Below, piece after piece: positions 4,653-56,340 of a stretch of 64,000 nucleotides of DNA. The notes under the pieces were generated by a model that saw nothing but the letters and a program-made list of their open reading frames with translations, made no database searches and had not been told where the DNA came from. Made by a program: the position numbers and the translations under genes. The DNA is from a virus (taxonomy: Duplodnaviria; Heunggongvirae; Uroviricota; Caudoviricetes), in the IMG/VR virus record IMGVR_UViG_3300027908_000001, positions 23,167 to 87,166 of that record; one strand, given 5' to 3'. Each line of letters opens with the position of its first letter. Positions within the stretch are counted from its first letter, which is position 1.

Positions 4653-5026
4653 CGGGCCAGACGCCGCGCCGCAGCCGGGGTAGAGGCCAGCGTGGCCGCC
4701 TTGCCGACAAGTTCGCGCGCTTCCATGACCTTGGCCACCTGAGAGGCTGGAATCGCGACATAGAACCGGACGGCCTGTTCACCGTCCATCTTGTTCAACC
4801 GCTCCTTGGATTTGCGGATTGGAGCGGGCAACGCTACATTCGGGTCTGGCCAGTCGGCGATGAAGGATTTTATGAGTTCGGAGTCCGGCGCGGGCTCGTC
4901 CTCAAAGAGGTTTGGCATCACGAACGGTCCGACATCCGGCAAGATGGCCGTTGCGTGGTCATCCCGACCCACGATACGCCAACCCTCGGGCACGGCTACG
5001 TCAGGCTTGAGTAGTATTGGCGTCAT
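4631..5026 (-). CDS. hypothetical protein (~131 aa; track ORF 4631..5170 trimmed to internal Met MTPILLKP)
   Basis: ORF track; start chosen to minimise overlap with the 1126-aa gene ending at 5001; protein-like composition. Confidence 0.3.
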   Translation of the reverse strand: MTPILLKPDVAVPEGWRIVGRDDHATAILPDVGPFVMPNLFEDEPAPDSELIKSFIADWPDPNVALPAPIRKSKERLNKMDGEQAVRFYVAIPASQVAKVMEARELVGKAATLASTPAAARRLARQRKVTS

Positions 5027-8000
5027 TGACGACTTTCTCCATGTACTCCAACAACGGCCAGTTCCGTTGATGGAAATCCTCGCGCTTGTAGTTCGGGGCT
5101 GTAACCGCGGCAAATGTTTCGGCGAACCCTTCCTTGGAATTATCGAAGCTATACGATGAAATGGTCTCATGCCGAATGTCGCTCAGGCTTCTCGCTGGCT
5201 TTTCCCCACCGGCGATATATTCCCGCTGCTGGCGCATCGCAACCTCGACCTCGGCGTCGTAGTCCTCCTTATACGGGGCGTACAATCCGCGCCATTCCTG
5301 CGCGCGAGCGATATCCGTGCTCTCAATCCCATCTTCGACATGATGGCCGTATTCGTGGTGCAGTATTCCTTCCAGAGAATCTCCGGGCACAGAACATTCT
5401 CCCGGCTTCACGTTAAATGGCTCGTCGGCGTTCACCTTGGAAATTTTACCACCCCAAAGTTGCGGCGTGTCATACACCACAATTCCGTTGCCGTGCATGT
5501 ACTCGGCTTGCGGCGTGTTCAGGTCCATAGGCTTGGAATCCGGTCGAGCCTGACTGAGTGATACGACCACCGGCACCTTTCCGTACTTCTCAAAGATACG
5601 CTGCATCGACGGGTCATTCCAGAATTTGTTGGCCGCCTTCTGAACGTCGTCATGAAACTGCGGGGTCACCTTGTCGGCCTCCGCGCCTGCGAACGTCTTG
5701 GACCAGCGACGCAGCACTCGGGTAAAGGCGGCCTTCTCTCCCGCCGAGAATCGAAGCGCCACATCGTCGGAATCGCCGGGCTTGACCATGCCCATTTTCT
5801 TGCGCCAAAGCGATACGGCCAGCATATTGGCGCGCTGGTCGTTTAACTCCTGAACCGTCATATCCTTGAGCTTGTCCAGCTTGGCCGCCTCAAGCTTCTG
5901 AAAGTGCGAGACGAACGCCCGCGCCGATTCCACCGAACCGGTTGGCACCACCCCGCTGACCGCGAACTCCCCCTTGGCATCCCGGGGGTGCTGCGCTGGG
6001 TCGAACGCCTTGCCGATGTCTGCTTCCTCGTGACTCCATGTGCCGCGATTGAAGGCCGACTTAATTTGGTGTGGCTCGAATGCCAGCCAAACGCTGTGAG
6101 TAGGGCCTCCCATTTTCCCGCCAGTGTCTTTGATGCCATCGTAACCAAATCTCTGCAGAATTGGCAGCGCATCCTTCGGGACCTGCGTGGCCCAGAACGT
6201 CTCCTTGCCGGTAGCCTCCTCTTCCTTGATGTCGCGCACCCAAGCCTTGAGCGGATATTCCTTCGTCCAATGCGTGTCGCTGATGACATCCTCGCTCGGC
6301 ATGCGTTTGCGCTTGACGGCGCTCTCCAAGACATCCATCAAATCTTTCGGAATCGGCTTGCCGCCGTCGAGCGGGTTCTTGATGCTAAGGTATAATGGGA
6401 ACACCGCCGGTTGCGACCAGTTGTACGCGTTCCATTTCAGGCCGATGTGGTCGAGTAGCTGCTCAAATGGACTCTTGTTCTGCCGCAGTGCGAACGGGCC
6501 TTCGCCTTCATCGGCATACGCAATGTTGTACCCCATTGACTCCATGACCTTAAAAATGGAGAATAGGTCTTTGGTGCCGCCGCGATAGAATGCTTGCCGT
6601 GAATCCTTGTCATAGTCCTTATTGTCGGCCACGTACTTGTCCAAGTCGAAGTGGACCCCGTCCTCTCGATTCAGGAACTCCTTGGCTTTCGCTGCCTGCT
6701 CCGGCGTCAGCGTGATTTGCCAGAGCTTCTTGTTGAACTCTCCGTTCTTACCGGCAATCCTATATTGGTCGCCGTTCTCGTAGGTTTCTTTCACGCCCAT
6801 TTTACCGGTCGCGTAATTGGAGGCAATGGCCGGGTCTTCGGTGGCGTAGAACGCGCCTGCGGTGGATTTGCGCGGGTTGAATCCTTTGCCGTAAAGCTGC
6901 GCATTGTTCTGACCGGAGTAGACGACCTTTGGCTGGCCTTTTTCATCCACGACTTTTGAACCAGCGAACCATGCTTTGAATGCTGGAGAAGAAGTGCCGC
7001 TCGTGAACTCCCCACCGCCTGCTGAGCCCTTCGGTACGCGCGGGTGAACGGCTTCATCGAAGGATTTGCGCATGTCATCCATCGCCTTGGCTACTTCCGC
7101 CGGTTCCTTGGTCACGTCTTTGCCATTGACGTGGGTGATGTGGATTCGTGAATCGTCGAAGATGACGTAGTTGTGGGTCTGCCGGTCCTTGGCTTTGTCG
7201 TAGTATGCCTTCGCATCGGCCTCGTGAATGAACTGCAAGGTGCCTTTCATTGAGTCATCCACTTCCCAAACGCTCGTCTTCGGGTCTTTGCGAGGTTCGT
7301 GGACACGACTGCCTTGGTCGAGGTACTTCAAACCCGGTATGCCGTTGGCTTTAAGCTCTTCGGAGGCGGCCTTGGGCGACCCTAACAGGTCGGAGAGTTC
7401 CGTGTAAAAAGTTGCCCCAGTCTTGTCGGACAGGTCGTACTCTTGAAATCGTCTCGATAGCTCACTGGCCTTATGGAAATCCGTTTCCTTGTTCACCACG
7501 TCATCTAGCACGTCCTTCACCGCCGACCGGATGCTGTCGTTCTGTTGGCTGAGCGGCCTGTCGTCATCCAATAATTCACCGGGCCTGACTGCCAACTTGA
7601 CCTGATACATATTGCCATGGCCCTGCGCGATTGCGCCTTTATCCACCGCGGCCAGTAGCGTATCGGCCTTGGCCTTCAATGCCTGCACGCCTTCGAGGTT
7701 TACTTCGAGGAACTCATTCGGCTTGTAGACCATGTCCTTGATGGCCTGAAATGTTTTTGCATGACCGTTCTGGCAGGTGCTGCTGTTGCCTTCATACTCC
7801 TTGGTGTCGGTCCAGTAGGTAATGCGCGCACCGTCGCTGGCCGTCCATTCTTGGCAGGGCACCGCTTTGCGCTCTGCGCCCCATCCATGCATGTACTCCA
7901 CGTCGACCGGCCCGGTCCACTTCCGCTCCCGGGCGTTCTTCACTTCGGCATCAACCTTGGCCTGATACTCGGACGCCCGCTGGTTGGCAACATCGACGGT

Positions 8001-8381
8001 GTTGGTCGCCCATTGCTTCAACTGATTCAGCGCGCGGGTCTGCGATGACTTGTTTGTAGAATTTAGCGCCACCTTGAGCTTGTTGTAGGCTGCATCGGTA
8101 ATCCCAAGGTCGTGCGCGTCGGCTCCGTCCACTAGAATAACATCGCCCAGCTTCTTGTAGCTCTCCGCAGTGGCTTGTTGGTCGGCGAAGTAGAGGCCGT
8201 ACCCGTATGCCTGCGCGCCTTCGCCTTCGCCGATATGGGATGAGGAAAACTCCGGTACTAGGTTCGGTGTGCCATGATACGCAACGATGCCGCCAGCGCC
8301 GTCCGATTCCGAGAACCGGCCTTTGTCGTCGTGGTGGACGTTAAACTTGGCGATGCGCCGCAATGTTGCGATGATGTTCAT
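5001..8381 (-). CDS. polyvalent-type giant protein (1126 aa) with C-terminal HExxH zinc-metallopeptidase motif
   Basis: ATG at 8381; motifs FNVHHDDKGRF (N-term), HPRVPKGSAGGGEF, HPRDAKGEFAV; HHEYGHH (HExxH) encoded at 5340..5360; TPEFKAWF...VVYSG...FYAT and SIKNPLD...GYDGI...QIKSAFN modules paralogous to modules in the 1600-aa protein. Confidence 0.65.
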   Translation of the reverse strand: MNIIATLRRIAKFNVHHDDKGRFSESDGAGGIVAYHGTPNLVPEFSSSHIGEGEGAQAYGYGLYFADQQATAESYKKLGDVILVDGADAHDLGITDAAYNKLKVALNSTNKSSQTRALNQLKQWATNTVDVANQRASEYQAKVDAEVKNARERKWTGPVDVEYMHGWGAERKAVPCQEWTASDGARITYWTDTKEYEGNSSTCQNGHAKTFQAIKDMVYKPNEFLEVNLEGVQALKAKADTLLAAVDKGAIAQGHGNMYQVKLAVRPGELLDDDRPLSQQNDSIRSAVKDVLDDVVNKETDFHKASELSRRFQEYDLSDKTGATFYTELSDLLGSPKAASEELKANGIPGLKYLDQGSRVHEPRKDPKTSVWEVDDSMKGTLQFIHEADAKAYYDKAKDRQTHNYVIFDDSRIHITHVNGKDVTKEPAEVAKAMDDMRKSFDEAVHPRVPKGSAGGGEFTSGTSSPAFKAWFAGSKVVDEKGQPKVVYSGQNNAQLYGKGFNPRKSTAGAFYATEDPAIASNYATGKMGVKETYENGDQYRIAGKNGEFNKKLWQITLTPEQAAKAKEFLNREDGVHFDLDKYVADNKDYDKDSRQAFYRGGTKDLFSIFKVMESMGYNIAYADEGEGPFALRQNKSPFEQLLDHIGLKWNAYNWSQPAVFPLYLSIKNPLDGGKPIPKDLMDVLESAVKRKRMPSEDVISDTHWTKEYPLKAWVRDIKEEEATGKETFWATQVPKDALPILQRFGYDGIKDTGGKMGGPTHSVWLAFEPHQIKSAFNRGTWSHEEADIGKAFDPAQHPRDAKGEFAVSGVVPTGSVESARAFVSHFQKLEAAKLDKLKDMTVQELNDQRANMLAVSLWRKKMGMVKPGDSDDVALRFSAGEKAAFTRVLRRWSKTFAGAEADKVTPQFHDDVQKAANKFWNDPSMQRIFEKYGKVPVVVSLSQARPDSKPMDLNTPQAEYMHGNGIVVYDTPQLWGGKISKVNADEPFNVKPGECSVPGDSLEGILHHEYGHHVEDGIESTDIARAQEWRGLYAPYKEDYDAEVEVAMRQQREYIAGGEKPARSLSDIRHETISSYSFDNSKEGFAETFAAVTAPNYKREDFHQRNWPLLEYMEKVVNDANTTQA

Positions 8382-11300
8382 GCTTCCTTGGTCAGCGGTA
8401 TCTCCGTATGCACTCCGGTCGGAGTGGAGAAATCAAGATGTGAAATGGGGATGGCCTTGCCTGCGAACCGGTCGTCTCCGACATACTTGTCCACGAACTC
8501 TGGTTTCAGATATGCAATCGTCATGTGGCCGATGTACTGGCCATCGAAATCGCTCTTGTACGGCAACCGTTTCAGGCGCTTGTTCATCCGGGTCAGCGCG
8601 CCGCCGTAGACCGGGACGTACAGCACGCGGTACTCCTTGCCTTCGCGTTGCGGGAACGATGCAGTCCGGCCGCACACGATGGTGAATGGCTCAAACTTGT
8701 CGGTGATGGCGCGAACGTCGGCAGGGTCTTGCGTATCCAGTCCGTAGAGCACCGTGGCGTGGATGTCTGTCTCGCGTCCGAAGTCCGGTCCGTAACTGTC
8801 GTCCGCGGCTGGCTCCGTGTAAAGCTCGCTGTCCGGTATCGACTTCCCGTACTCCAGAAACGGCTTGGCATCCTCGGGCTCGACCATGGCCATGACGCAG
8901 GACGCCGATAGCTTGGTGGCGTCGCGCTTGGCGAGCGGGGTCGTCAAGTCGGTGTCCTTTCCGTGTAGCCTGTCCCAGAGATAATCCAACTCGAAATAGT
9001 CGTAGGCCGCGTGGTGGCCGCGTGAGCCGCGCCGTACCGCTTGTGCCGTGGTCTCGCCCGGCAGGCCGTGCGTGATTTGAAGCTGCTTGTTTGTCGGGTC
9101 GGGCTTCGTGAAGTCGTAGCCGCGTTTCTCGATGTCCAGCGCGTGCTCGATTTCGTGCCGTATGGTGGACAGTTGGCGCTCCTTGACCTTGCCCTGCCAT
9201 GGCTCTGGACGTGGCAGCCCGATGACGAATTGCAGCGGCTTATTGGTGGCCTTGTCGTACTGGACGGAAATCTCGCCGTGCCGCGTGGACGTATCATGCC
9301 AAACGAACTTCGTAGGAGTCTGGATGCCAAACTTCTTCACATAGAATGCAACCGCCTTAGCCGGGTCGGTTGTGCCGGTTTCCTCGGCCACCAACTTGTG
9401 AATCAATTCCGTGGTGCGCTCGTTAATTGGGTCGTTATCGAACTGCGTCTTGGTCATACCCGCGACCTTTATCGCCGCCGCCTGTACCTCTGGGTCTTGA
9501 AACTTCGGCGCAAACTCTCCCCTGTCATCCCTCGGATGCTCGTCCTCTTCCCATGCCTTGCTGATGTCCGGGCTGTCGGCGTGCGGTGTCGGGTTGAATA
9601 CGGACTTGATTTGCGAAGGGTGGAACGCTATCCACGTGTCGCCGGAGTGGCCCGGCTGCACTTCGTTGCGGCTCGTGTTCTGGTAATGGATGCCGTCGTA
9701 GCCCAGCTTCACCAAGATGTCTTTGGCTTTCGCGGTGTGACGGTCGAGCAAGCCGATGCCGTAATCCTTTGCGAACTCATCCCATGACTCCCAGTTCCCG
9801 TACTTACCGCCGCTGTTGTGGAATCCTTTGCCGGACTGCAACGCGTCCCAGACTTCGCCGTAGTGCTGAATCTTCGCCGGGTCGGTGCTGTTATACGTCA
9901 CGGCCTTGATGAACAGGTTCTTGTCCGCCGGGAACACGACTTTCTCCACCGCGCGCGTGATGGCGTTCTGGTCGAACCCGGTATCTTCCGTGCCGACGTT
10001 CAGCGGGTGCTTGATGCTCAAGTAAACCGGGTACACCGCGCCACCGGGGATGAGCATCCGCACGCTGTAGTCCGGACCGAGCCGGTCGCGCATGCCCCAT
10101 GTGCTGCCGTGTTTGTTCACGTCGTAGGGCTCGACGGCGATGTCGTGGAGGTCTTTGTCTTGCTTGACCAATACCGGCAGACCGTCGTACTTGATTTCTC
10201 CATCCTTGCCCCGGTACCACGATTCGTCCGGATGATATTCGTTGACATGGAAATCTTGGGCGTAGGCGTACTCGCCTGCCGTAAACGCGTTCGGGACAGA
10301 TGGGTCGACGGCGAAGTGGGAGCCGACCTGCGTGTTGAAAAGTGATACGTTGTCCGTCGCGTCGGTCTTGAACTCGCTGAATGCCGCCCGGCTGCCGTGA
10401 TATACAACCAAGGGTTTCCCGTCCGGCGTCACGACCTTCGAGTCCCCGAACCATTGCTTGAATTCGGGCGTATTGGTCAAGTCACGCTTGACCTGCTGGC
10501 CCGGTTCCAAACTGTCGGAGCTTGTTGATATGTCCCGACCTTTCGCATCACCGGCTGCAAACCTTCCCCGCGCATCATGGTTGGGATTCGCCTTCCCCAC
10601 ATCTTCCGCCTCGCCGGTATCCAGCACTTCACCGCCGTCATCGCTCTGGGCGGCTGAGGCTTTTTCTTCGGCCAAGGTGGGCCAAGGATTTCTCGCCAAG
10701 TCTGGGTCTGTAAAGACATTTGTTGGCGGCTCCGTCTCAACCTCTTCATCCGGGCCAAGCTCGTATACGGCCTCCACGGCACAACGACAGTTCTTGACTA
10801 GGAAGCTCTCACACTGGTATAAATGGTACTGTGAAGCTTGGAAATCATACACATGGGTGCTCACCGAAAAATTCCTAATCTTGCTGATTTTGGCAGGCGC
10901 TATGAAGCTGGCGAACCTACCACAAAACTCGCTCGCGCGGCGGGTGTCACCAAGAGAACAATGAACATCCGTCTCCGAAGCATTGGAGTGCGAATCCGCA
11001 CCCCCAGTGAAGCGCAGCTTTTGAAGAATGTCCAATGGGGTCCGCGGAAGCGCCAAAGGATTACCGCTGCTGCTCACGCCGCCAATACCGGCAGAAAGCG
11101 AAGACACATTGAACTTGTCCATATTGCCCAAGGCCGAGAGCGCAACCAAACCCATATCTCCTATATTGAGGCTCCGCTTGCTGCCAGATTGCGGGATGCT
11201 GGCCTTGCGGTTACGCAACAAAAGGCGATTGACAAGTACAATATTGACATCGCTATTGAAGAACCGCGCATCGCCATAGAAATCTGTGGCGGCCAAGGTG

Positions 11301-13180
11301 CCATTTGGAATCGTTACCGCACCTTTTACAGCAAGCGCCTCAAATATATCCTCGACAGCGGTTGGGCCGTTGTAATGGTCTATACCATAGCCGCCCGCCA
11401 TCCCCTCACTGTCGGTTGTGACCAATACATATTCGCCCTCATTGAGCGACTTCGCCTGTCTGTAGCCGGTAGGCGTGAGTACCATGTGATTCGCGGTACA
11501 GGAAAGCCTACGCCCATTAGCAAGATGTATTTCAACCGCAGGCCCGACATAGAATACCTTGGATGCTGCGACGAGGTCTGGAATAATCGCCTTATTGCTT
11601 GGGAGGATGCAATTCGGATGGGCCGGAAACGCGTCTTGGATGTCTGAGATTGCCCAAACTCTTCCGTCGAAGCCATCGCAAATCGGGCATTCGTCAGGAG
11701 TACCAAGCCAGCGAGCCAAGGAAATTCCGTCATTTTGGTATGATGCCAATGCAGCCCGCACTTGTCCTCGCGCAAATTCGGTGCGGGCAATTCTGTCAGA
11801 CTCATACCCGGTCAAATCCTGAAATCGGTCATTGATAATTCCGCCCATTTCCTTGGTGGGAATACCGTCGCTCAATCCATCCACGAGCAAGTCCTTTATC
11901 GAGCTATCAATTCTCGAAAGCGTGCTCTCCGAAAACTTCATCGCATACTCTTGCAGCGCATCTTCCAGCGGCTCTTTGACGGCGGAGGCCAGCGTGTCCT
12001 CGTCTATCTCCAATTCATCGGCGGCGATGGCGATGCCGTCGTCCACCCCGGCCGATTGCGTAATCATCAGCGCGTCGGCCAGTTCGGCAATCGCATCTTC
12101 ACCGGCATCCGGGAAAGCGTCCTGCAGGATGGCTTCGATGTCGAACTCGAATTCTTCCGGGTCGGGTAGGTCATCGTCGTCGGGGTCGTCTTTGGCTATG
12201 CGCGTGAAGGTTTTCCAGACGCGGGCCAGTAGGGACTTGGTGATATCTTTCTCTTTGGGGTCGAACGTGCCGCGGTTGCCGATGGCGGATTTGACCTGCT
12301 CGGGGTCGAACGCCGCGTAGGTGGTAGCGAATCCACTCTTGCTATCCTCATAGAATATTGCGCCGTCGTATCCCAATTTCTTCAGCACACCAACAAATTC
12401 AGCGCCATCCTTGTCATCGAAAAACTCCCAGTAGTTGGAGGCGTTCCTGTAATAGGATGGATTCAGGCCAGCGCCCTTCAACTCATCAAGCGTGTCCTCA
12501 TCAAATCCATTGCGTAAATCCAGCGGGGACTTGATGTTCATGTAAACCGGCATGACGTTGGTGCCGGGTTCTTCAGGGTTAATATATTCCTGAGCGAACT
12601 TCGGATTCTCGGTCGCGAATATGGCACTGCGCTGAGTCTCGAAGTTACCAAAAAATCCGTAGTTATTGATGCTCTTCCTGCCGACTTCAAATGTGCTGAA
12701 ATCCCCCTTGGTTGCATGGAACAGTTCCAGTGGCTTGCCGTCTTTCATGACCACGGATACCGGCGGCAGACTCGGGTCGCGCTTGGACGACCATGCGTGC
12801 GGGTCTTGCCAGTCGCCGAACCAAGCTTTGAACTCTGGTGTTGTAGTCTGCGAAGCGAACTCACCGCCGCCGGTCGCGCCTTTCGGATTCCGTGGATGCT
12901 TGGATTCATCCCACGCCTTGGCAATCCGGCCGAGTAACGACTTCTTGACCGGCACCGGCGGATGCTTGGCGAGCGCTGCCAGTACGCGACCGCGCCACTT
13001 CGCGAACACTGCGGCGATGGCGGCCTTGCCAGCCTTTAGTCCGGGCTCATCTTCAAAATGCGGGGCGTCCTTGGCCTTGGAGATGCACGTCCGGCATCCA
13101 CACGCCGTCAGCGAGATGCGACATTCATGGACGGCGTCGAATAGTTCTTGGGCTTCGGCTTTGGAGAGTCGAACTGGCAC
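8378..13180 (-). CDS. polyvalent-type giant protein (1600 aa) containing a MuF/SPP1-gp7-like head-morphogenesis domain interrupted by an intein
   Basis: Track ORF with GTG start at 13180; MuF-like block RIARTEFARGQ...WLGTPDECPICDGFDGRVWAISDIQDAFPAHPN|C...N|CRCAVEAV; HPRNPKGATGGGEF, NPNHDARGRFA, EHPRDDRGEFA motifs; two copies of the TPEFK(A/Q)WFGD...(Y/F)H(G/A)(S/T) and (S/N)IK(H/S)PL...GYDG(A/I)...Q(I/V)KS(A/V) modules. Confidence 0.7.
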   Translation of the reverse strand: MPVRLSKAEAQELFDAVHECRISLTACGCRTCISKAKDAPHFEDEPGLKAGKAAIAAVFAKWRGRVLAALAKHPPVPVKKSLLGRIAKAWDESKHPRNPKGATGGGEFASQTTTPEFKAWFGDWQDPHAWSSKRDPSLPPVSVVMKDGKPLELFHATKGDFSTFEVGRKSINNYGFFGNFETQRSAIFATENPKFAQEYINPEEPGTNVMPVYMNIKSPLDLRNGFDEDTLDELKGAGLNPSYYRNASNYWEFFDDKDGAEFVGVLKKLGYDGAIFYEDSKSGFATTYAAFDPEQVKSAIGNRGTFDPKEKDITKSLLARVWKTFTRIAKDDPDDDDLPDPEEFEFDIEAILQDAFPDAGEDAIAELADALMITQSAGVDDGIAIAADELEIDEDTLASAVKEPLEDALQEYAMKFSESTLSRIDSSIKDLLVDGLSDGIPTKEMGGIINDRFQDLTGYESDRIARTEFARGQVRAALASYQNDGISLARWLGTPDECPICDGFDGRVWAISDIQDAFPAHPNCILPSNKAIIPDLVAASKVFYVGPAVEIHLANGRRLSCTANHMVLTPTGYRQAKSLNEGEYVLVTTDSEGMAGGYGIDHYNGPTAVEDIFEALAVKGAVTIPNGTLAATDFYGDARFFNSDVNIVLVNRLLLRNRKASIPQSGSKRSLNIGDMGLVALSALGNMDKFNVSSLSAGIGGVSSSGNPLALPRTPLDILQKLRFTGGADSHSNASETDVHCSLGDTRRASEFCGRFASFIAPAKISKIRNFSVSTHVYDFQASQYHLYQCESFLVKNCRCAVEAVYELGPDEEVETEPPTNVFTDPDLARNPWPTLAEEKASAAQSDDGGEVLDTGEAEDVGKANPNHDARGRFAAGDAKGRDISTSSDSLEPGQQVKRDLTNTPEFKQWFGDSKVVTPDGKPLVVYHGSRAAFSEFKTDATDNVSLFNTQVGSHFAVDPSVPNAFTAGEYAYAQDFHVNEYHPDESWYRGKDGEIKYDGLPVLVKQDKDLHDIAVEPYDVNKHGSTWGMRDRLGPDYSVRMLIPGGAVYPVYLSIKHPLNVGTEDTGFDQNAITRAVEKVVFPADKNLFIKAVTYNSTDPAKIQHYGEVWDALQSGKGFHNSGGKYGNWESWDEFAKDYGIGLLDRHTAKAKDILVKLGYDGIHYQNTSRNEVQPGHSGDTWIAFHPSQIKSVFNPTPHADSPDISKAWEEDEHPRDDRGEFAPKFQDPEVQAAAIKVAGMTKTQFDNDPINERTTELIHKLVAEETGTTDPAKAVAFYVKKFGIQTPTKFVWHDTSTRHGEISVQYDKATNKPLQFVIGLPRPEPWQGKVKERQLSTIRHEIEHALDIEKRGYDFTKPDPTNKQLQITHGLPGETTAQAVRRGSRGHHAAYDYFELDYLWDRLHGKDTDLTTPLAKRDATKLSASCVMAMVEPEDAKPFLEYGKSIPDSELYTEPAADDSYGPDFGRETDIHATVLYGLDTQDPADVRAITDKFEPFTIVCGRTASFPQREGKEYRVLYVPVYGGALTRMNKRLKRLPYKSDFDGQYIGHMTIAYLKPEFVDKYVGDDRFAGKAIPISHLDFSTPTGVHTEIPLTKEA
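10790..11611 (-). other. Hint-domain intein (274 aa) inserted in the MuF HPNCRC motif
   Basis: N-extein ends ...FPAHPN, intein begins C(11611..11609)ILPSNK..., block-B-like GRRLSCTANHMVLT, C-terminal block HVYDFQASQYHLYQCESFLVKN(10792..10790) followed by extein Cys (10789..10787) RCAVEAV; removal regenerates HPNCRC, the canonical MuF motif. Confidence 0.5.
10838..11647 (+). CDS. HTH + DUF559/Vsr-like PD-(D/E)xK endonuclease-domain protein, encoded antisense inside the intein
   Basis: Track ORF (TTG at 10838; first ATG at 10853); HTH-like TTKLARAAGVTKRTMNIRLRSIGV; DUF559-like block YNIDIAIEEPRIAIEICGGQGAIWNRYRTFYSKRLKYILDSGWAVVMVY (cf. family pattern D-x-a...vvEiDGgqH...D..R...L...GW.VlRf). 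Confidence 0.45.
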   Translation: MEIIHMGAHRKIPNLADFGRRYEAGEPTTKLARAAGVTKRTMNIRLRSIGVRIRTPSEAQLLKNVQWGPRKRQRITAAAHAANTGRKRRHIELVHIAQGRERNQTHISYIEAPLAARLRDAGLAVTQQKAIDKYNIDIAIEEPRIAIEICGGQGAIWNRYRTFYSKRLKYILDSGWAVVMVYTIAARHPLTVGCDQYIFALIERLRLSVAGRREYHVIRGTGKPTPISKMYFNRRPDIEYLGCCDEVWNNRLIAWEDAIRMGRKRVLDV

Positions 13181-13194
13181 TTGTGGCCTGCACT

Positions 13195-13860
13195 TTACGG
13201 CTCTTTGTGGTAGGAATCAATCTGTTCTTGGTCGGATTTGGAAACGCCGTTCAGGGACGCTTGGAATCGAGCGTCAAGGTCGTCCTTCATCTTTTGCGGC
13301 AAAGTCGAATAAGAGTCCTCAGTGTGCCCCTGCCGCGCCAAGAACGATGTCCTTGCGTCGTTACTATCGATGGGGGCCACGCCGCCGCGCCGCTCGCTGC
13401 CATGACCGCCTGCATCTTTGGCCTTACCCAAAAACTCGCTGGCCGTCTTGCGCACCGGCGACGGTTTGTCAATGACCTCGGCCCACTTCGATTGCCAGTC
13501 ATCGAACGACTTACGGACCCGGCCTGATATGCCGAGACACTTGGTTGCGGTGCTGTGGAGCGTTGAACCCAACTGGAAACCCGCGTCGGATTTCAGGAAC
13601 TCGACGGCCTTGGATTCGGTAATGCCACTCTTAATGAGACTTGACACTACCAAATCATCGTAACGCGCGTCCCTGACGGCCTTGAAGAACCCTCCACCGG
13701 CTTCGGCACGTAGGCGCTTGGCGAGGTTCTGGGATTCAAAGTGACGGTGGACGGGCGTCGGCAGCCTAGGCGCGGGCGCACCCGACACCTTGGCGACCGG
13801 CTCGAACGTCGTCTTGAGGTTGTCAAAAGATTTGAATATGCCGCTGAATTTCCCGCTCAT
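13195..13860 (-). CDS. hypothetical virion-associated protein (221 aa) with KAKDAGGHGSERRG motif
   Basis: Track ORF, ATG at 13860, TAA at 13195..13197; shares KAKDAxGHGSxxRG motif with 14451..17699 and 19745..20458. Confidence 0.45.
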   Translation of the reverse strand: MSGKFSGIFKSFDNLKTTFEPVAKVSGAPAPRLPTPVHRHFESQNLAKRLRAEAGGGFFKAVRDARYDDLVVSSLIKSGITESKAVEFLKSDAGFQLGSTLHSTATKCLGISGRVRKSFDDWQSKWAEVIDKPSPVRKTASEFLGKAKDAGGHGSERRGGVAPIDSNDARTSFLARQGHTEDSYSTLPQKMKDDLDARFQASLNGVSKSDQEQIDSYHKEP

Positions 13861-14450: not shown

Positions 14451-17400
14451 TTAGACTTGGCCGCCGGATTTGACGATGTTCTGCATGCGACCGAGTAGGC
14501 CAGCCGGTTTTTGGCCTGACTTGGATACCGAATTATCCGGGCCGGTCTCGTGGGCATAATAAACCCCTTTGTCGGTAGAAACCATTGCCATGCCAAGCCT
14601 GTTATTTTCGTGGCCGATTACGGTTGCTGGTCCGGAGTAGCTATCATGGTCGTTTACACTCACTTTGGTGCCGACAGGATATTTATTCCGTAATGCGTCC
14701 AGAGCACTAGCGGCTCGCGCACGCCTTTCCGAGCCATGTCCACCCGCATCCTTGGCCTTCGCAAACGCCGCAATGACAGCCATCGGGTCCGAATCATCGA
14801 CCGGTCCGGTCGTCTCGTTGTCCAGATTATCCCCGGCTTCCCATCCGCAGGCCGAGCATACAAACACTCCGCCTACGCCGTTGTCCGTGTGGTCCATCGT
14901 GCCGCCGCAGTTCGGGCATACGACCTTGTCGGCTTGGCCGGTCGATACGTTGACCGCACCGGTGTTGCCGGAGAAGGTCTTGGCCAGTTCGAGCGCCTTC
15001 TCCACTTCGTGCGAGTCGTCGGCCTTTTCAACGAATGCTGAAATGGCATCGGAATCTGAAACTGTCTTACCGACGTGCTGCGCTATGCTACCGGCAATGC
15101 GTTTGGCGGAATCTTCGGAGTATCCCTTGGCCTGCATGTACTTCACCGCGTTGTCGAACCGTTCGCCGGTCCCGGCTTCACCTTTGAAGTGGCCGCCTTC
15201 CGTGTACTTCGATTCGGCGTCGTCGGACTTAACAACCACTGCATCCTTCGCCTTCGCCACGTGCGCCGCGCTCGTTAATTCCAGTGCCTTGCCGATGGCG
15301 ACTGGCTTGCCGCTCCGGCTCTTGTACAGGTCGAAATCGAAATCATCCGTGTCATCCCAGTCCGCGCTCTGGCCCAATTGCGCGCAGATGTCCTTGGCTT
15401 CGTAGGGGTCCATGGACTGGTCGGTAACGAGGCTGCTCATGCAGTCGTCCATGCTGGAGAATTCGCTGGCGTCGGCGTCCTTGCGAACCACGACCGGCTT
15501 TGACGCCTTGGTCAGGCCGACTAATGCGCCCATGAATTTCAGTGTCTTGCCGATGACCCGTTGCCCCGCCGTCTCGTGCGTGGGCGTGACGGCTTCCATT
15601 TCCTGCTTGGTGCGTTCCATAATTTCTTGATTCCTCTCCGCTTCGGTCGGGCGCTGGTCTACCTTGATGACAATTCTTTCGGATTGAAGTTTTTTGATTG
15701 CCCGGTTTATCGTGGCGATGTCTTTGGGCACGCTCATGCCGCTATCCCGTAGACCCTCAAGCGCCTTTATTTGTGCATCGGTTCCGGGTGCTCTATTTGC
15801 CGCCCAAGTAATGGCGGTGCCGACTGTCATACGGCTTTGCTTTTCTTCCTCGGATTCTTCCCCGCGCTTATTCGACCCGTGCCCAAGAGCATCCTTAGCC
15901 TTGCTCACGTCATCGTCATCCACGCTGTCCATATCGTAGGCTTCGTCGTTGCTCTCTCCGCAGGCCGGACAGACTGCCGCGCCGCCGCTGACCTTCGCGT
16001 CGGACATCGATGCGCCGCAGTTCTTGCACTTCCATGCCTTCTGGACCGGGGCAGTCGGAGCCGCCGGTTGCGTGGCCTTCCCACCTCCGCCGCCGGACGT
16101 ATCGCCCGTGTCGTCATCCCATTCTTCCATGTCGGAGGTCTTGCCGCAGGAGCCGCACTTCAGCGCGTCGCCTTGGAATTGCACTTTGTCCGGCATCTGG
16201 CCGCACGCCGGGCAGTTCGATATGGATTTACCAATTTGCACGTCACCCATGGTAACGCGGCTGCCATCGGACTTGTGAATCACGACTGCCACCACGATAC
16301 CATCGGCATTCGCCACCTCGGTTCGCATTGCCTTCTCCACGCTCTTGTCCGCGCCCGGCCAGCGACCAAGGTACTTTTTGTGAAGGGCAGCACATAAAGC
16401 GTTCGGGTCAGATACGCCACTCATCGGCGCTATTTCTTTGACGCAATAGTTGAAAAATCCTCCATCATCCTCGCGCTCTTGGGCCGTCTTGTGCTCGCCG
16501 TCGGCCTTCTTGATGCCGCGCTCGGCGTTATACATGGCCTCGCCCTTCTGGTGCGCGGTCTGGAATTCGTCGCTCTCCAGTTCGTTACTCGCCATGTGAT
16601 GCTGAATCGCCGCCTCTTTGATTGCCGGTGCCGCCCACGCCCGCTGAGCCTCCATAGCCTTGTAGTGGTCGTTGTTGACGCTTTGAACCCTGTCCAAGTA
16701 CCCGTTCCAATCCAGTTTGCCTGCCTCGGCGTCACGGTGGATACGGCCCATACTGTAATGCATGGCTGCTTCGGCTGAGTTGAAGTTGGCATGATGCGGG
16801 TCGTTGTTGGCGCGCGCTGCGAGCGCCGCCTGACCATAAGCCTTGCCTGCATCCTCGTTCGACCGGGCCGCTGCCGCATGCGCGCCGCGGTCGTCGAATC
16901 GTGGGCTGAGCGCTCGCGAGGTATCTTCGGTGGCAATGTTACCACGCGTAACCGCCAAAGCTGATAGCGCTTCGGACTTCTCGCCGAGCCGGTCGCCACG
17001 CTTATTGCTGCCATGGCCCTTGGCATCCTTCTCTTTAGAAACCTGCACGATGGCCTTGGCCAGCGCCGTGTCCTCATCCGTGACCCGGATTTTCAGCAGC
17101 TTCATGTTGTGCTTTTCCATCCGGTCGGCGCAGCTTGGGCAAATCTTCGCGATGATGGCTATCGGGACTCTCAGGACAATGCCTTCAGTAGCCCTAGCTT
17201 TGTTCACCGCGTCTTGAAGAAGAACAGCACGTGCGTGTTCATCCAAGTTCTTGAAAATATCGTCATCATCCCACAAGGCATCCTGACCGAGCTTGTCGCA
17301 AATGTCGGACGCTTCACCGTAATCGTGGCCGTTGTCCTGAATCATCGTGGTCATACATTGCTCGCGGTTCTCGAAGTCAGTGGGCTCGGCACCGTCGCTG

Positions 17401-17699
17401 TCCTCGTCCCAAATGTCTTTGCGGAGCAGCGACTTTTCCAGCATCTCCACCGTCGGCTCAATCAAGGCACCAGCCTTGGTGACGTTGGCCGCGTCCTGTA
17501 GTCCAAACACCTTCGAGGCGATGGTGCCTGCCTCATCGGGCGTGTACCCGAAACTGACGAGGTAATTCTTGCAGCCGTCGAACCCGGACTTGAACGTACC
17601 GTCCGGGTTCAGGAACTTCGCGCGCGCGCCTTCCAGCGACACCTTCGCAATCTTCTGCTCATCCGACAATATGAGGTTCTTGAACATGACCAATTCCAA
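14451..17699 (-). CDS. large zinc-ribbon-rich structural/internal protein (1082 aa)
   Basis: Track ORF (TTG at 17699; first ATG at 17687); four CxxC...CxxC zinc-ribbon pairs (CPSCADR, CPACGQ...CGSCGK, CKNCGAS...CPACGES, CPNCGGT...CSACGWE); three KAKDAxGHGSxxRG motifs; internal repeat (EQCMTTMIQDNGHDYGEASDICDKLGQDALWDDDD / MDDCMSSLVTDQSMDPYEAKDICAQLGQSADWDDTDD). Confidence 0.6.
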   Translation of the reverse strand: MELVMFKNLILSDEQKIAKVSLEGARAKFLNPDGTFKSGFDGCKNYLVSFGYTPDEAGTIASKVFGLQDAANVTKAGALIEPTVEMLEKSLLRKDIWDEDSDGAEPTDFENREQCMTTMIQDNGHDYGEASDICDKLGQDALWDDDDIFKNLDEHARAVLLQDAVNKARATEGIVLRVPIAIIAKICPSCADRMEKHNMKLLKIRVTDEDTALAKAIVQVSKEKDAKGHGSNKRGDRLGEKSEALSALAVTRGNIATEDTSRALSPRFDDRGAHAAAARSNEDAGKAYGQAALAARANNDPHHANFNSAEAAMHYSMGRIHRDAEAGKLDWNGYLDRVQSVNNDHYKAMEAQRAWAAPAIKEAAIQHHMASNELESDEFQTAHQKGEAMYNAERGIKKADGEHKTAQEREDDGGFFNYCVKEIAPMSGVSDPNALCAALHKKYLGRWPGADKSVEKAMRTEVANADGIVVAVVIHKSDGSRVTMGDVQIGKSISNCPACGQMPDKVQFQGDALKCGSCGKTSDMEEWDDDTGDTSGGGGGKATQPAAPTAPVQKAWKCKNCGASMSDAKVSGGAAVCPACGESNDEAYDMDSVDDDDVSKAKDALGHGSNKRGEESEEEKQSRMTVGTAITWAANRAPGTDAQIKALEGLRDSGMSVPKDIATINRAIKKLQSERIVIKVDQRPTEAERNQEIMERTKQEMEAVTPTHETAGQRVIGKTLKFMGALVGLTKASKPVVVRKDADASEFSSMDDCMSSLVTDQSMDPYEAKDICAQLGQSADWDDTDDFDFDLYKSRSGKPVAIGKALELTSAAHVAKAKDAVVVKSDDAESKYTEGGHFKGEAGTGERFDNAVKYMQAKGYSEDSAKRIAGSIAQHVGKTVSDSDAISAFVEKADDSHEVEKALELAKTFSGNTGAVNVSTGQADKVVCPNCGGTMDHTDNGVGGVFVCSACGWEAGDNLDNETTGPVDDSDPMAVIAAFAKAKDAGGHGSERRARAASALDALRNKYPVGTKVSVNDHDSYSGPATVIGHENNRLGMAMVSTDKGVYYAHETGPDNSVSKSGQKPAGLLGRMQNIVKSGGQV

Positions 17700-18394: not shown

Positions 18395-18874
18395 CTAAGC
18401 CTTAACCTCGGAAGGACCGGGCAAAAGAACTGGACCATCTGCTTTGCGAATCTTGTGCGCAGCAAAAATTTCGTTGAGGTGCGCTACATCCAGCGGCTTC
18501 ATGAGTAGCCCGAAATATCCAACCTTGGCGGCCTTGTTCAGGCATTCGCTATCCGGGCTGTCGGCGATTAGTATCACCGGCACGCCAGCCAGTTTCACCT
18601 TTAGGAATCGAAGCGTCTCGACAATATCTATATCGGTCACGTTCAAGTCCAGAAACAACAGGCTTATTAGCCTATCCCGACCAGCCGATGTTTCAGTGTC
18701 AATTATTGTCCTGAACATCTCCCCCGTTGTGGCCGATAGGACGTTACAGCCATATTGATTCAAGACATTGGCTATCAGGACCAGCGTTTCTGTTTCGCTC
18801 TCGACCACTAGCACTCGCGGTGTCTTATTCATCGCAATAACGGCTTCATCCACGAATTCAAGCACTCGGTTCAT
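18395..18874 (-). CDS. standalone response-regulator receiver (REC/CheY-like) domain protein (~159 aa; track ORF 18395..19009 trimmed to Met MNRVLEF)
   Basis: PRVLVVESE...LNQYGCNVLSATTGEMF...ISLLFLDLNVTDIDIVETLRFLK...VPVILIADSPDSECLNKAAKVGYFGLLMKPL: acidic pocket, phospho-acceptor Asp in LFLDLN, conserved T/K positions; no output domain. Confidence 0.5.
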   Translation of the reverse strand: MNRVLEFVDEAVIAMNKTPRVLVVESETETLVLIANVLNQYGCNVLSATTGEMFRTIIDTETSAGRDRLISLLFLDLNVTDIDIVETLRFLKVKLAGVPVILIADSPDSECLNKAAKVGYFGLLMKPLDVAHLNEIFAAHKIRKADGPVLLPGPSEVKA

Positions 18875-18881
18875 AGAGGCG

Positions 18882-19250
18882 TCACCGATGGAGAAATCCT
18901 CCCGCCAATATCGCCAGTATTGCCGCCATGATAACACCTCCGGCCCATGCCGCAACGGCCCATCCTCCTGTAAAGAAAGTCCGTTGCCGTTTGAACTCTT
19001 CCACGTCATTGCTCATCGCAAACTGCTCGGCCAATGAGCGGCGCGCCTCGTGGTTCAGACGTATCACCACCTGAATGAACCAGTCCTGTTTCTGTCCGGC
19101 AATGTCCACGGCCTGAATCATGTACCGCTCGGATTCTGTGGCCGATGCCAGCAAGTGTTTGGGCACACGACAATCGAAGCGCGGCGTTTGCGTTATCTCC
19201 GGCAGCCGCGCGTCCAGTTCGTTCCGTTGGTCCTGTGTCAGCTCACCCAT
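18882..19250 (-). CDS. tail-anchored membrane protein (122 aa)
   Basis: Track ORF; C-terminal WAVAAWAGGVIMAAILAILAGGFL hydrophobic segment. Confidence 0.35.
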   Translation of the reverse strand: MGELTQDQRNELDARLPEITQTPRFDCRVPKHLLASATESERYMIQAVDIAGQKQDWFIQVVIRLNHEARRSLAEQFAMSNDVEEFKRQRTFFTGGWAVAAWAGGVIMAAILAILAGGFLHR

Positions 19251-23041: not shown

Positions 23042-23938
23042 TCATGCCGTGATTTCTTCGTAAGCGCCAACCAGAACCTTGCTGTCCCAGAACATCCGTC
23101 CGCCGTTGGCAATGAGTTCGGGCTTCCAGTTACCCAAAATCGGTGAAATATGGGTTTCTCGGAATCGCTTCATATCTTCCGCCGCCTGCCTGCGCCCCTC
23201 TCGCGTCAATCCGCCTTCTTTCCTGTGCATGAGCGCATACTGCGTCGGCACTCCGTAATGGTCGAATCGGAAGCGTGGGTCGGTGACGAAAAAATTCGAT
23301 ATGCATCCCATGAGCCGCATCCCGAGGCGGGCGTCCTGAGCCCGGTAATCACTGAGTTCATGGTTGTGGCCACCTAACTCGCGTAACATTTTTCTCGGGG
23401 CCGCCCATATCGCCCCGTAAGCCAGCAACGGTGTCTTGGGCATCCGATACACTCCGGGCTCTGCAGGAAAATAGTCCAAGCGAGGGTCACGATGGAGCTT
23501 CACGCCGGTCTGTTCGTCGTAGAAATCGATTTGGCCCCACAACACTCTCTGCGGTGTTTCGGTAATGCGCTGCTCAATCACCAACTCGACCATGCCGGTG
23601 TCAGGAACTCCGTCTGCGTCCAGATGAATCAGGATGCTGCCAATCGCTTCCTTGAAAAGCACGTTCTCGGCCCAGCCCGGACCTCCGCCTTCGAGTGTCC
23701 TTGGTGTCAATCGACGGAACACGCTCGCTGAGAACGGCCAGTCATGCCCGAGCAATTCTTTCTTCAAAACCTCGACTGTGTCGTCCGTTGATGCATCGTC
23801 GACTACTAGGACTTCAAGCGGAGGGATGGTCTGGCAGGCGAGGGCCTCAAGTAGCTTGCCATCTCGCCAGTGTTCGGCGTCGTTAAAACTTGGTATGATT
23901 ACACTGACTGTCACGCCTTCCCCCGCATCTTGCCCCAT
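23042..23938 (-). CDS. glycosyltransferase family 2
   Basis: VSVIIPSFNDAE...LEALACQTIPPLEVLVVDDASTDDT: classic GT2 N-terminal signature. Confidence 0.6.
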   Translation of the reverse strand: MGQDAGEGVTVSVIIPSFNDAEHWRDGKLLEALACQTIPPLEVLVVDDASTDDTVEVLKKELLGHDWPFSASVFRRLTPRTLEGGGPGWAENVLFKEAIGSILIHLDADGVPDTGMVELVIEQRITETPQRVLWGQIDFYDEQTGVKLHRDPRLDYFPAEPGVYRMPKTPLLAYGAIWAAPRKMLRELGGHNHELSDYRAQDARLGMRLMGCISNFFVTDPRFRFDHYGVPTQYALMHRKEGGLTREGRRQAAEDMKRFRETHISPILGNWKPELIANGGRMFWDSKVLVGAYEEITA

Positions 23939-54786: not shown

Positions 54787-56340
54787 CTACTCCGACATCT
54801 TCGCTATACGGCGCTCCATGCGCTCCAGCGCCGCCGCCACGCGGTTTGTTTCCTCGTCAGCGGACTTCATCACTGCCGTGGGCCGTGGCGTGGCTCCGGG
54901 CGGTCTGAGGCTCTGCATGGTGTTCGACAGCCCAGCGCCCGGCACCGGCGCGTTCGGCGCGTTCGTCTCACCCGGCTTACCGGCTCCGGCGGCCGGTTTG
55001 ATAATCTCGTCGCCGCCTTCTTCGGATGGCAGCGGGTCGAGGCGCATGACCTTACGAATCTCGTTGCGCTTGAAACACTGGGTCTGCGCCATCTCGGTGG
55101 CAATCGTCGCGTTGGCCGTTTCCTCGGTCAGGTCCATCACTGGCAACTCAAACTCGTAGTCGGTTACGCCGAGGCATTGGAGCAACATGTTCATCGGATG
55201 CTCGACACGGCGTTGACGCGGCAACACGACTTCATCCCGGAACTGTTCGGCCTGTTCGGGTGATGTCTGGAACTTCGAGGTATCCAGCGATGCGACGCGG
55301 GACGGCGGCACGCGACGGCAGGCTAATATCTCGTCCCGGTTCATGTTCTTGTACAGCTTGAAGCTCATGTCCTTAACGTCCTCGGACATTTTCTCAAACC
55401 GGATGGCCTCGTCCACTTTGAGGTTGGACCCGTCCATGCCGATGATGAGCGGCTTGTGCCAGTCGCCTTTGCGGAGCTTCTGCTCAAAGAATTCTTCGAT
55501 GCGTCGCTTGGTCGGGGCAGATACCTGACCGCCGAATAGTATCGCCCATTTCGCAATCATGTTGGACTCAAACATGTCGAGGTTGTAATCGCGCGCGCGA
55601 AGGTCGGCCAGTATAGAGCCGATGGCCGCTAAGTGGTCCGGAATTCCGTAGTAGTAGGAAACCGGATTGGGCCGGTGGATGTGGATGATTTCGTTCAGGC
55701 TGAAATCTTTGTTGTCGGGACTGAATGGGAAAAAGAACGCCCGTTTGCCGCCGCGAATCTGCTCGTACTTGGAGCGGTCGAAATGGATTCGCATCGTGTC
55801 AGACGGGATGTAATAGATGTACTTTGGAACGCCCTCTTCACGCGCGACTTCGATGAAACCATTGCCGGTGTTTTCGTAATCTTGCTGGACGGACTTGAGC
55901 ACATCCTCAATCGGGAATCGCTCGCCGCAGGTGCGGACGAACGAGACGGCCAGTTCCTTTTGCGCTTCGTCACCATCCTGACCGTCGGCGTCCTCGGCTT
56001 CTTCAAGATGTTGGGCCAGCTTGACGCCGACCTCGTAGCCGATGACAGAATCTACGATGGCGTCAACTGCGGCTTTGTTCCAGACGTTCTGGTCGTAGAG
56101 CCCGCGCAGTTCACGGAAGTTGAATGGTGGAGAAACGTACTGCCAGCCGTGCTCCAAGGGTCGAACTTGTCGCGATACACCAGCGCCGCCTTCGCCCTGA
56201 TTGCGACCCATGACTTGTCCGCCAGCGAATGGAAAGTCTGTGGCGCTCATGCCGCTGGATTGTACCGACAACTCGGAAGGGCTGGATACGCCGGGAAGTT
56301 TGGCTTTGACTTTGGCTTTCGCCTTGGGGTTCTTAGGCAT
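54787..56340 (-). CDS. portal protein (putative)
   Basis: 517-aa ORF two genes downstream of terminase large subunit; size, position and acidic C-terminal region fit phage portal proteins; no exact motif verified. Confidence 0.5.
   Translation of the reverse strand: MPKNPKAKAKVKAKLPGVSSPSELSVQSSGMSATDFPFAGGQVMGRNQGEGGAGVSRQVRPLEHGWQYVSPPFNFRELRGLYDQNVWNKAAVDAIVDSVIGYEVGVKLAQHLEEAEDADGQDGDEAQKELAVSFVRTCGERFPIEDVLKSVQQDYENTGNGFIEVAREEGVPKYIYYIPSDTMRIHFDRSKYEQIRGGKRAFFFPFSPDNKDFSLNEIIHIHRPNPVSYYYGIPDHLAAIGSILADLRARDYNLDMFESNMIAKWAILFGGQVSAPTKRRIEEFFEQKLRKGDWHKPLIIGMDGSNLKVDEAIRFEKMSEDVKDMSFKLYKNMNRDEILACRRVPPSRVASLDTSKFQTSPEQAEQFRDEVVLPRQRRVEHPMNMLLQCLGVTDYEFELPVMDLTEETANATIATEMAQTQCFKRNEIRKVMRLDPLPSEEGGDEIIKPAAGAGKPGETNAPNAPVPGAGLSNTMQSLRPPGATPRPTAVMKSADEETNRVAAALERMERRIAKMSE

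Follow-up and report, generated by a model that had tools for sequence, protein, structure and literature searches.

A Vsr/DUF559-type endonuclease gene opposite a MuF intein in a caudovirus: a distant member of a known antisense family

Inteins that carry an endonuclease gene on the opposite strand have been described previously. According to Gosselin, Arsenault & Gogarten (bioRxiv 10.1101/2025.01.02.630785, version 2), antisense LAGLIDADG homing endonucleases (HENs) have been known in inteins since Gorbalenya (1998), with a further report by Gogarten (2002), and antisense LAGLIDADG open reading frames (ORFs) occur in the inteins of Synechocystis DnaX, of a Chloroflexus SpoVR-like protein and of Gordonia phage minor capsid proteins. 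Supplemental Table 1 of the same preprint lists MuF-like minor capsid inteins with a VSR -1 ORF in the Gordonia phages Malisha, Vivi2, Angelicage, Affeca, Fosterous, Sedona and Kewpiedoll, and its searched text reports horizontal-transfer-like patterns for two VSR clusters. Here, we analyzed a stretch of 64,000 nucleotides (nt) from a virus of the Caudoviricetes (IMG/VR record IMGVR_UViG_3300027908_000001, positions 23,167 to 87,166; hereafter, the window), in which a plus-strand ORF lies opposite an intein in a MuF-like head protein. The first-pass annotation of this sequence had regarded an antisense endonuclease within an intein as a novel arrangement; however, VSR-like HENs antisense in MuF-like inteins are already contained in the searched text of the preprint. 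The antisense arrangement is therefore known, and the window holds a new, distant member of the VSR -1 ORF MuF inteins.

Related enzymes and inteins are known from other contexts. Dassa et al. (2009; PMC2677866) described a Vsr-like endonuclease family that was found only with split inteins, and antisense orientation was not discussed there. I-Bth0305I (PDB 3R3P), the EDxHD/Vsr-like homing endonuclease encoded by a group I intron in recA of phage 0305phi8-36, is reported to cut beside its own insertion site (PMC3239194). For Jersey-like phages, an intein-containing capsid morphogenesis protein is known, and an endonuclease is not mentioned (PMC8425127).

The link to the published family is one of homology. 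The best tblastn match of the window endonuclease in an isolated phage was gene 5 of Gordonia phage Malisha (33.6% identity, 86% of the query, E=8e-16), where the match lies antisense in a gene that is annotated as a hypothetical protein and located between those for portal and scaffold; Malisha is among the phages listed with a VSR -1 ORF in that supplemental table.

The antisense endonuclease gene and its intein

The listed plus-strand ORF spans exactly 10838..11647 (269 codons from a TTG) and lies inside a 1600-codon minus-strand ORF; the coordinates that the first-pass annotation had given for this ORF and for the intein (10790..11611) were correct, as were the peptides quoted there. The features of the locus are collected in Table 1. 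In Pfam, the plus ORF matched MTES_1575 REase (E=1.7e-5), DUF559 (E=0.016) and HTH_7 (E=0.1). Eight endonuclease homologues were detected in the protein database (E from 3e-38 to 4e-21, 34-41% identity), and PF18741 was found in six of them. A profile of the endonuclease matched the DUF559 protein 3HRL in the PDB (6e-4), which places the core in the Vsr-like fold, and the AlphaFold2 (AF2) model was confident, with the ORF at full length. On the basis of these homologues, of the family-wide arrangement and of the strand-specific selection described below, the plus ORF is a genuine endonuclease gene opposite an intein, combining a helix-turn-helix (HTH) module with a Vsr/DUF559-type nuclease, as had been proposed at first pass.

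In many members of the family (L012, L017, L033, L087, L097, L100, P0002, P0003, P0006), the N-terminal HTH module is duplicated, and endonucleases of ~300 amino acids lie within inteins of 320-360 amino acids. This suggests that the DNA-binding part varies in copy number around a constant nuclease core.

Table 1. Positions of the features of the locus in the window and of the segments distinguished by selection (HEN, homing endonuclease; HTH, helix-turn-helix; SD, Shine-Dalgarno sequence; pLDDT, predicted local distance difference test; p1 and p3, diversity at plus codon positions 1 and 3)
Feature	Position	Strand	Description
Host gene	8378..13180	-	Single 1600-codon ORF; polyvalent head protein with ART-PolyVal, MuF, intein and 2',5'-RNA-ligase-like domain
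Class-1 intein	10790..11611	-	274 amino acids; host residues 524-797 (Cys524 to Asn797); Cys1...Asn274, +1 Cys; in the MuF HPN/CRC motif
Hint C-terminal subdomain	10790..10945	-	Intein residues 223-274; block F THVYDFQ, block G ...VKN; pLDDT 61-93; aligns to KlbA/RecA C-terminal blocks
Intein linker	10946..11326	-	Intein residues 96-222; predicted disordered, pLDDT 23-35 (shallow alignment); essentially antisense read-through of the endonuclease gene
Hint N-terminal subdomain	11327..11611	-	Intein residues 1-95; block A Cys1, block B T39-x-N41-H42; AF2 pLDDT 66-91 except residues 76-80
Window translation start	10840..10855	+	Weak SD (GGAAA), then ATG = reverse complement of the block-F His253 codon
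Antisense endonuclease ORF	10853..11647	+	From the family-consensus ATG at 10853; 264 amino acids; stop codon 11645-11647, 36 nt past the intein N-junction
Three-helix HTH DNA-binding module	10880..10981	+	N-terminal; HEN residues ~10-43
Vsr/DUF559-type nuclease core	11150..11419	+	HEN residues ~100-189; D132 at 11246-11248, E143 at 11279-11281
Degenerate catalytic motif	11297..11317	+	Family GGxWH..GRH reads GGQGA..NRY in the window
C-terminal structured extension	11420..11512	+	HEN residues ~190-220 (...EYHVIRGTG); antisense to block B; dual-coding; AF2 pLDDT 69-89 up to ~220
Unstructured ORF tail	11513..11644	+	HEN residues ~221-264; read-through antisense to the first 33 residues of the intein and 11 codons of the N-extein; pLDDT 32-43; minus-strand selection only
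Selection segment	10745-10879		p1 > p3; minus strand selected; intein C-terminal blocks and C-extein
Selection segment	10880-11419		p3 > p1 by 0.07-0.28; plus strand selected; endonuclease, plus protein better conserved than minus
Selection segment	11420-11644		p1 > p3; minus strand selected; Hint N-domain and N-extein

The host protein matched ART-PolyVal (E=2e-34), 2_5_RNA_ligase2 at its C terminus (E=1.4e-4) and, below threshold, Phage_Mu_F at residues 427-524 (E=0.0024), and its PHROG matches were to head-morphogenesis families (down to 4e-11). These matches and the split HPN/CRC motif (slashes mark splice junctions) identify the host of the intein as a MuF-like minor capsid or head morphogenesis protein. 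The junctions read HPN/CILPS...LVKN/CRC, and excision restores the MuF motif HPNCRC. The insertion site is common to ~95 related loci, and wherever the junctions are visible in these relatives, they follow the pattern HPxC / C[LIV]LP ... [SHK]N / C(R or E)C. The intein belongs to class 1 by its Cys1, block B T39-A-N41-H42, C-terminal Asn274 and +1 Cys. Pfam Intein_splicing matched host residues 540-797 (E=8e-6, under the gathering score), and a profile of 45 related inteins matched the KlbA intein (4e-11) and RecA mini-inteins (~1e-6) in the PDB, covering blocks A/B (intein residues ~16-74) and F/G (~235-273). A Hint fold is indicated by these profile matches to solved inteins and by the beta-rich AF2 model, which is confident for residues 1-95 and 223-274. 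The intein alone returned nothing at E<=0.001 from the 5.8-billion-cluster protein database, because its conserved blocks are too short.

The endonuclease had been placed opposite the intein linker at first pass. This agrees with the predicted disorder of residues 96-222, but the ORF also crosses blocks A and B and starts inside block F. An endonuclease domain in the intein's own frame was considered and rejected, since those residues are predicted to be disordered and that frame is less conserved. We also considered whether the locus might be a fractured gene of the kind reported by Dassa et al., the context in which the same Vsr-like superfamily was first found (PMC2677866). However, the minus frame is unbroken through the endonuclease gene, both in the window, where it is a single 1600-codon ORF, and in 100/100 loci, so that no internal stop or restart is needed. 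A fractured gene or split intein was accordingly rejected, and we regard it as extremely improbable.

Open frames, selection and translation start on the two strands

The endonuclease is a separate ORF opposite a contiguous intein, and the plus and minus frames share the same codon triplets (directly opposed register), so that one frame is open provided that the other strand has no TTA, CTA or TCA. This register is favourable: at the 55% GC of this window, the probability of the antisense frame staying open was P=0.11 in the window alone, and the length of the ORF by itself is therefore no evidence. An antisense frame that a GC-rich gene leaves open by chance, its motif match being spurious, would fit this probability, the sub-threshold Pfam matches of the plus ORF and the presence elsewhere in the host gene of a same-register antisense ORF of similar length (248 amino acids, 9041..9787 (+)). 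On the other hand, the plus ORF has homologues down to E=3e-38, whereas five control antisense ORFs from the host gene and its surroundings gave no Pfam match better than E=0.2, and its conservation is specific to the plus frame, with variable plus wobble positions.

The arrangement was further compared among 100 loci, comprising 80 of 269 IMG/VR matches, 15 loci from genomes and metagenome-assembled genomes (MAGs), 4 metagenome contigs and the window. The opposed minus frame was open across the endonuclease match in 100/100 loci, AT-rich ones included, always inside an ORF of 279-1635 codons, and the remaining two minus registers were closed. No TTA, CTA or TCA codon occurred in the HEN core of any of 63 non-redundant loci (63/63). 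Given the amino acids and codon usage of each locus, the median per-locus probability of this stop avoidance was 0.01, falling to ~1e-6 in AT-rich loci, and the joint probability was ~1e-148 when loci were treated as independent. Moreover, the plus frame remained open over 42 or more codons beyond the nuclease core in 63/63 loci, compared with 32/64 and 16/66 in extein controls. In most relatives, its stop is the antisense of the intein Leu2 or Leu3 codon (median -6 nt from the junction). The homologues, the conserved arrangement, the selection by strand, the stop avoidance and the control ORFs thus led us to reject a chance frame, for which next to no probability remains, and they bear out the first-pass statement that this is not a random antisense frame.

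Other long antisense ORFs are present nearby at 9041..9787 (+), 9818..10342 (+) and 12666..13472 (+), the last of which reaches into the neighbouring gene. None of them has a family match, and they look like chance frames, which makes them a useful internal control in this GC-rich gene.

To compare selection on the two strands, 67 non-redundant loci were aligned by codon and diversity was measured at each position, with plus position 3 corresponding to minus position 1. The signal favours the plus strand over 10880-11419 and the minus strand on both flanks (Table 1). At the level of single codons, ~35 were conserved in the plus frame only, including Y129, N130, D132, E143, G146, G147 and R162 of the endonuclease, and C1, Y21, G23, H42, L45, T46, G49 and A53 in the N-terminal Hint part were conserved in the minus frame only. 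Each signal also appears within the territory of the other: intein D114, within the nuclease core, was conserved in the minus frame only, and endonuclease G217, within intein block B, in the plus frame only. Several codons were conserved in both frames (HEN/intein: Q123/L131, A141/G113, W171/P83, I213/N41 and G215/T39). At the level of sequence comparison, these results show overlapping frames that are each under their own selection, and they support the earlier claim that two proteins are encoded on fully overlapping opposite strands.

The ORF runs antisense through Hint blocks A and B and has its start inside block F, and the parts of the two proteins that are predicted to fold share ~62 codons (11327-11512) and ~22 codons (10880-10945). 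The start signals of the endonuclease fall on conserved intein codons as well. The endonuclease start was the reverse complement of the block-F (GHVYDLQ) His codon in 52/59 loci (ATG in 44, GTG in 8), and TGGAGGTC, the antisense of the Asp-Leu-Gln codons, was found 8 nt upstream of the start in 47/59 loci. The block-F Leu codon was CTC in 40/41 loci, compared with 23% expected from host usage (P=6e-25), and the His codon was CAT in 36/41 loci, compared with 55% expected (P=7e-6). These biases indicate that synonymous sites of the intein are selected to supply the ribosome-binding site of the endonuclease. In the window, the start region reads TTGGAAATCATACACATG, and the Shine-Dalgarno (SD) sequence is weak, GGAG having become GGAA because block F has Phe in place of Leu.

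Taken together, it is moderately probable that the MuF intein and the Vsr-like endonuclease antisense to it make up a dual-coding module that is obligate, old and co-evolved, rather than the product of a recent accidental insertion into the linker. In such a module, ~85 codons would serve predicted folded parts of both proteins, with blocks A/B opposite the C-terminal half of the nuclease and block F opposite the start of the HTH. The same reading takes in the SD sequence and start formed from synonymous block-F codons, the spread over phages of many bacterial phyla, dozens of cultured Salmonella phages among them, and the poor gene calling, the last two of which are described below. The searched text of the preprint contains none of these points.

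Spread of the family, state of the window copy and surrounding genes

The tblastn search of IMG/VR matched 269 viral contigs, and the MAG loci were labelled as Bacteroidales, Omnitrophota, Chloroflexi, the PVC group and actinomycetes. Among isolated phages, matches were found in 61 Salmonella records and in phages of Haemophilus, Aggregatibacter, Escherichia, Shigella and Pantoea. The 61 Salmonella records are of Jersey-like phages, which carry the same antisense endonuclease in the intein of a head morphogenesis or structural protein (for example, phage SE1, MK479295.1 34269-36128, L101). In phage PK2 (PV446483.1, L102), it bears the annotation hypothetical protein (XRA40007.1). The eight endonuclease clusters in the 5.8-billion-cluster database all came from contigs of at most ~1.9 kb, and in each of the four cluster contigs examined, the MuF ORF continues past the end of the contig. 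Gene callers discard the nested endonuclease ORF when the longer MuF ORF is complete.

Jersey-like phages provide alleles with and without the insert. A spliced-extein query matched uninterrupted alleles in one piece of 792 nt at 94-97% identity (vB_SenTO17, Shemara) and interrupted alleles in two pieces over ~1605 nt (TS6, phi135, LPSE1, LP31). The exteins of the intein-less alleles (vB_SenTO17, MT012729.1 2748-3539; Shemara, NC_069152.1 4351-5142) and of an intein-containing allele (TS6, MK214385.1 31686-33293) were 94-99.6% identical. The insert that is present or absent measures 816 nt, and intein and HEN come and go together. This pattern is what would be expected for a homing element, at the level of the family rather than of the window lineage. 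The sequence evidence thus supports the view that the plus-ORF family behaves like an intein-associated homing endonuclease, and to this extent the first-pass candidate stood; the part in doubt is the activity of the window copy, which has lost near-invariant motif residues.

The family motif reads ...YN[IV]DIA...[IV]A[VI]E[IV]FGGxWH..GRH...R...GW..[IV][IV]W, whereas the window reads ...YNIDIA...IAIEICGGQGA..NRY...R...GW..MVY. In other words, D132 and E143 are kept, and the Trp-His pair has become Gly-Ala and the second His has become Tyr. The His of GGxWH is taken here, from the alignment, as the Vsr catalytic His. Among 67 loci, the change from W to G in GGxWH is unique to the window, that from H to A occurs in three (the other two being Jersey-like phage copies), that from the second His to Tyr in two, and that from the last Trp to Tyr in one. 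An apparent 'NRY' common to the window and Jersey-like copies was dropped, as it is not in register. The loss of the Trp-His pair and of the second His, the weak SD sequence and the sub-threshold Pfam scores suggest that the window copy is probably impaired, an estimate that we hold with modest confidence, and that it stands at a late stage of the homing cycle.

A stronger form of this view is that the family gene is real and that the window copy is a dead relic, no longer a nuclease and possibly not expressed, whose frame is still open since the decay is recent and stops are rare in this register at 55% GC. We lean slightly towards it. The rarity of the motif changes among the loci, the weakening of the SD sequence to GGAAA through Phe for Leu in block F, the chance of P=0.11 for an open opposed frame in the window, and Pfam scores that remain below threshold where those of 6/8 homologues pass are all in line with a relic. 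However, D132, E143, the GG pair, R162 and most structural residues are intact, and the full-length ORF yields a confident AF2 model. Moreover, Jersey-like copies with the H-to-A change are kept intact in dozens of isolates, and a variant without the His may thus work or bind DNA. The intact ORF and the persistence of such copies leave room for residual function of the window copy as well, or for a role in DNA binding only.

With regard to the surroundings of the locus, the minus strand codes almost the entire window. The host gene overlaps by 4 nt with ORF 5001..8381 (-), and the two ORFs (5001..8381 (-) and 8378..13180 (-)) encode neighbouring giant polyvalent proteins of 1126 and 1600 amino acids, both with an ART-PolyVal ADP-ribosyltransferase domain. 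In the larger protein, an ART-like repeat occurs a second time near residue 900, and a 2',5'-RNA-ligase/2H-like domain lies at the C terminus. A MuF gene usually stands directly after the portal gene; here, the portal and large terminase genes (54787..56340 (-), 57712..59247 (-)) are ~42 kb away from the MuF-containing gene. Genes that are unusual for a phage include one for a 1082-amino-acid protein that combines a zinc ribbon of the IS1595 type with a double zinc ribbon (14451..17699 (-)), one for a response-regulator receiver-domain protein (18395..19009 (-)) and one for a GT2 glycosyltransferase (23042..23938 (-)).

A candidate homing element and its known counterparts

The locus is very probably a composite selfish element, that is, a class-1 MuF intein with a homing endonuclease gene opposite it in directly opposed register. 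The minus strand reads through as one polypeptide, in which intein residues 1-95 and 223-274 make up the predicted Hint fold and residues 96-222 are left as a predicted disordered loop whose sole visible constraint is the absence of stop codons. The product of the plus strand comprises the HTH, a linker of helices and a nuclease core of the Vsr/DUF559 (EDxHD-like) type, and in the family, the antisense of block-F codons forms its ribosome-binding site and start codon. In the cycle that we propose, the endonuclease, made from a plus-strand transcript, would cut or nick intein-less MuF alleles near HPNC/RC in co-infecting phages, and repair would copy the intein and the endonuclease gene together. 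Splicing of the intein would still be required for a working head protein.

Several observations weigh against this account. Block G of the window intein lacks the canonical penultimate His, having Lys273 instead (VKN/C); among its relatives, this residue is K, S or H. The profile match expected at first pass was obtained, but both scores lay under the Pfam gathering scores (MTES_1575, 25.2 bits vs 38.2; DUF559, 15.5 vs 20.6). A promoter and terminator scan of 10200-12000 found nothing above chance, including upstream of the plus-strand start. The loci were gathered by endonuclease similarity, and free-standing relatives may lie further off or among the other 189 IMG/VR matches. The locus had no megablast match among 50,697 phage records, and the spliced extein found no relative in IMG/VR; as no close intein-less relative of the window phage was found in either set, homing cannot be inferred for its own lineage. 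Finally, given its motif substitutions, the window copy may not cut DNA.

The product might alternatively act as a free-standing nuclease, either in phage-phage competition (marker exclusion, as with T4 Seg/Mob) or against host DNA, or mainly as a DNA-binding regulator. Such a role would suit a separate polypeptide with its own HTH that is unfused to the intein, the persistence of copies without the motif His (the window, Jersey-like phages) and a host protein of the polyvalent conflict type. Nevertheless, we consider it unlikely. The gene was found only within a MuF intein in 100/100 loci, as expected if both move together; intein and HEN are jointly present or absent in Jersey-like phages; and I-Bth0305I, the closest solved homing enzyme of the same fold, is reported to cut next to its own site of insertion (PMC3239194).

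If the composite-element interpretation holds, the family would provide a clean natural case of two functional proteins from fully overlapping opposite strands, with selection measurable on both. It would also show how a free-standing endonuclease gene becomes a stable, unfused partner of an intein, which bears on the origin of intein-endonuclease associations and of split inteins. As standard annotation hides such genes, antisense endonucleases may be present in inteins that are catalogued as "mini" or "decaying". An easy experimental system is available in the cultured Salmonella phages, with their intein-plus and intein-minus isolates. The window copy itself is of modest value, as one more, probably decaying, member.

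Among the known systems, E. coli Vsr (PDB 1CW0) and DUF559 proteins (PDB 3HRL) are cellular repair or uncharacterised proteins and do not belong to mobile elements. Compared with them, the window protein has an additional HTH at its N terminus, a helical linker and a further strand at its C terminus, and it is without the motif His. I-Bth0305I differs in being intron-encoded on the sense strand and in its N-terminal DNA-binding region, and the profile similarity to it is marginal (E=0.76). The fractured genes (PMC2677866) are alike in that a Vsr-like putative homing endonuclease, mostly in phages, forms a separate ORF at the endonuclease position of the intein; unlike here, the host gene and intein are in two genes there, whereas in the window the intein frame is open and contiguous, and splicing is predicted to occur in cis. 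The antisense LAGLIDADG inteins, as presented in the searched text of the preprint, share an endonuclease opposite a contiguous intein and differ in the endonuclease itself, which is LAGLIDADG there and Vsr/DUF559 here.

The closest counterparts are the VSR -1 ORF inteins of Gordonia phages. The searched text of bioRxiv 10.1101/2025.01.02.630785 does not contain the broad spread of the family, the overlap of the ORF with splicing blocks A, B and F beyond the linker, or the SD sequence and start codon derived from block F. The window differs from the Gordonia inteins in its host, a 1600-amino-acid polyvalent protein of an unrelated phage without a close relative in the collections searched, and in the degenerate catalytic motif of its copy. 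The two are alike in their MuF-like extein, in a contiguous class-1 intein and in a Vsr-like ORF that runs antisense to it in frame -1.

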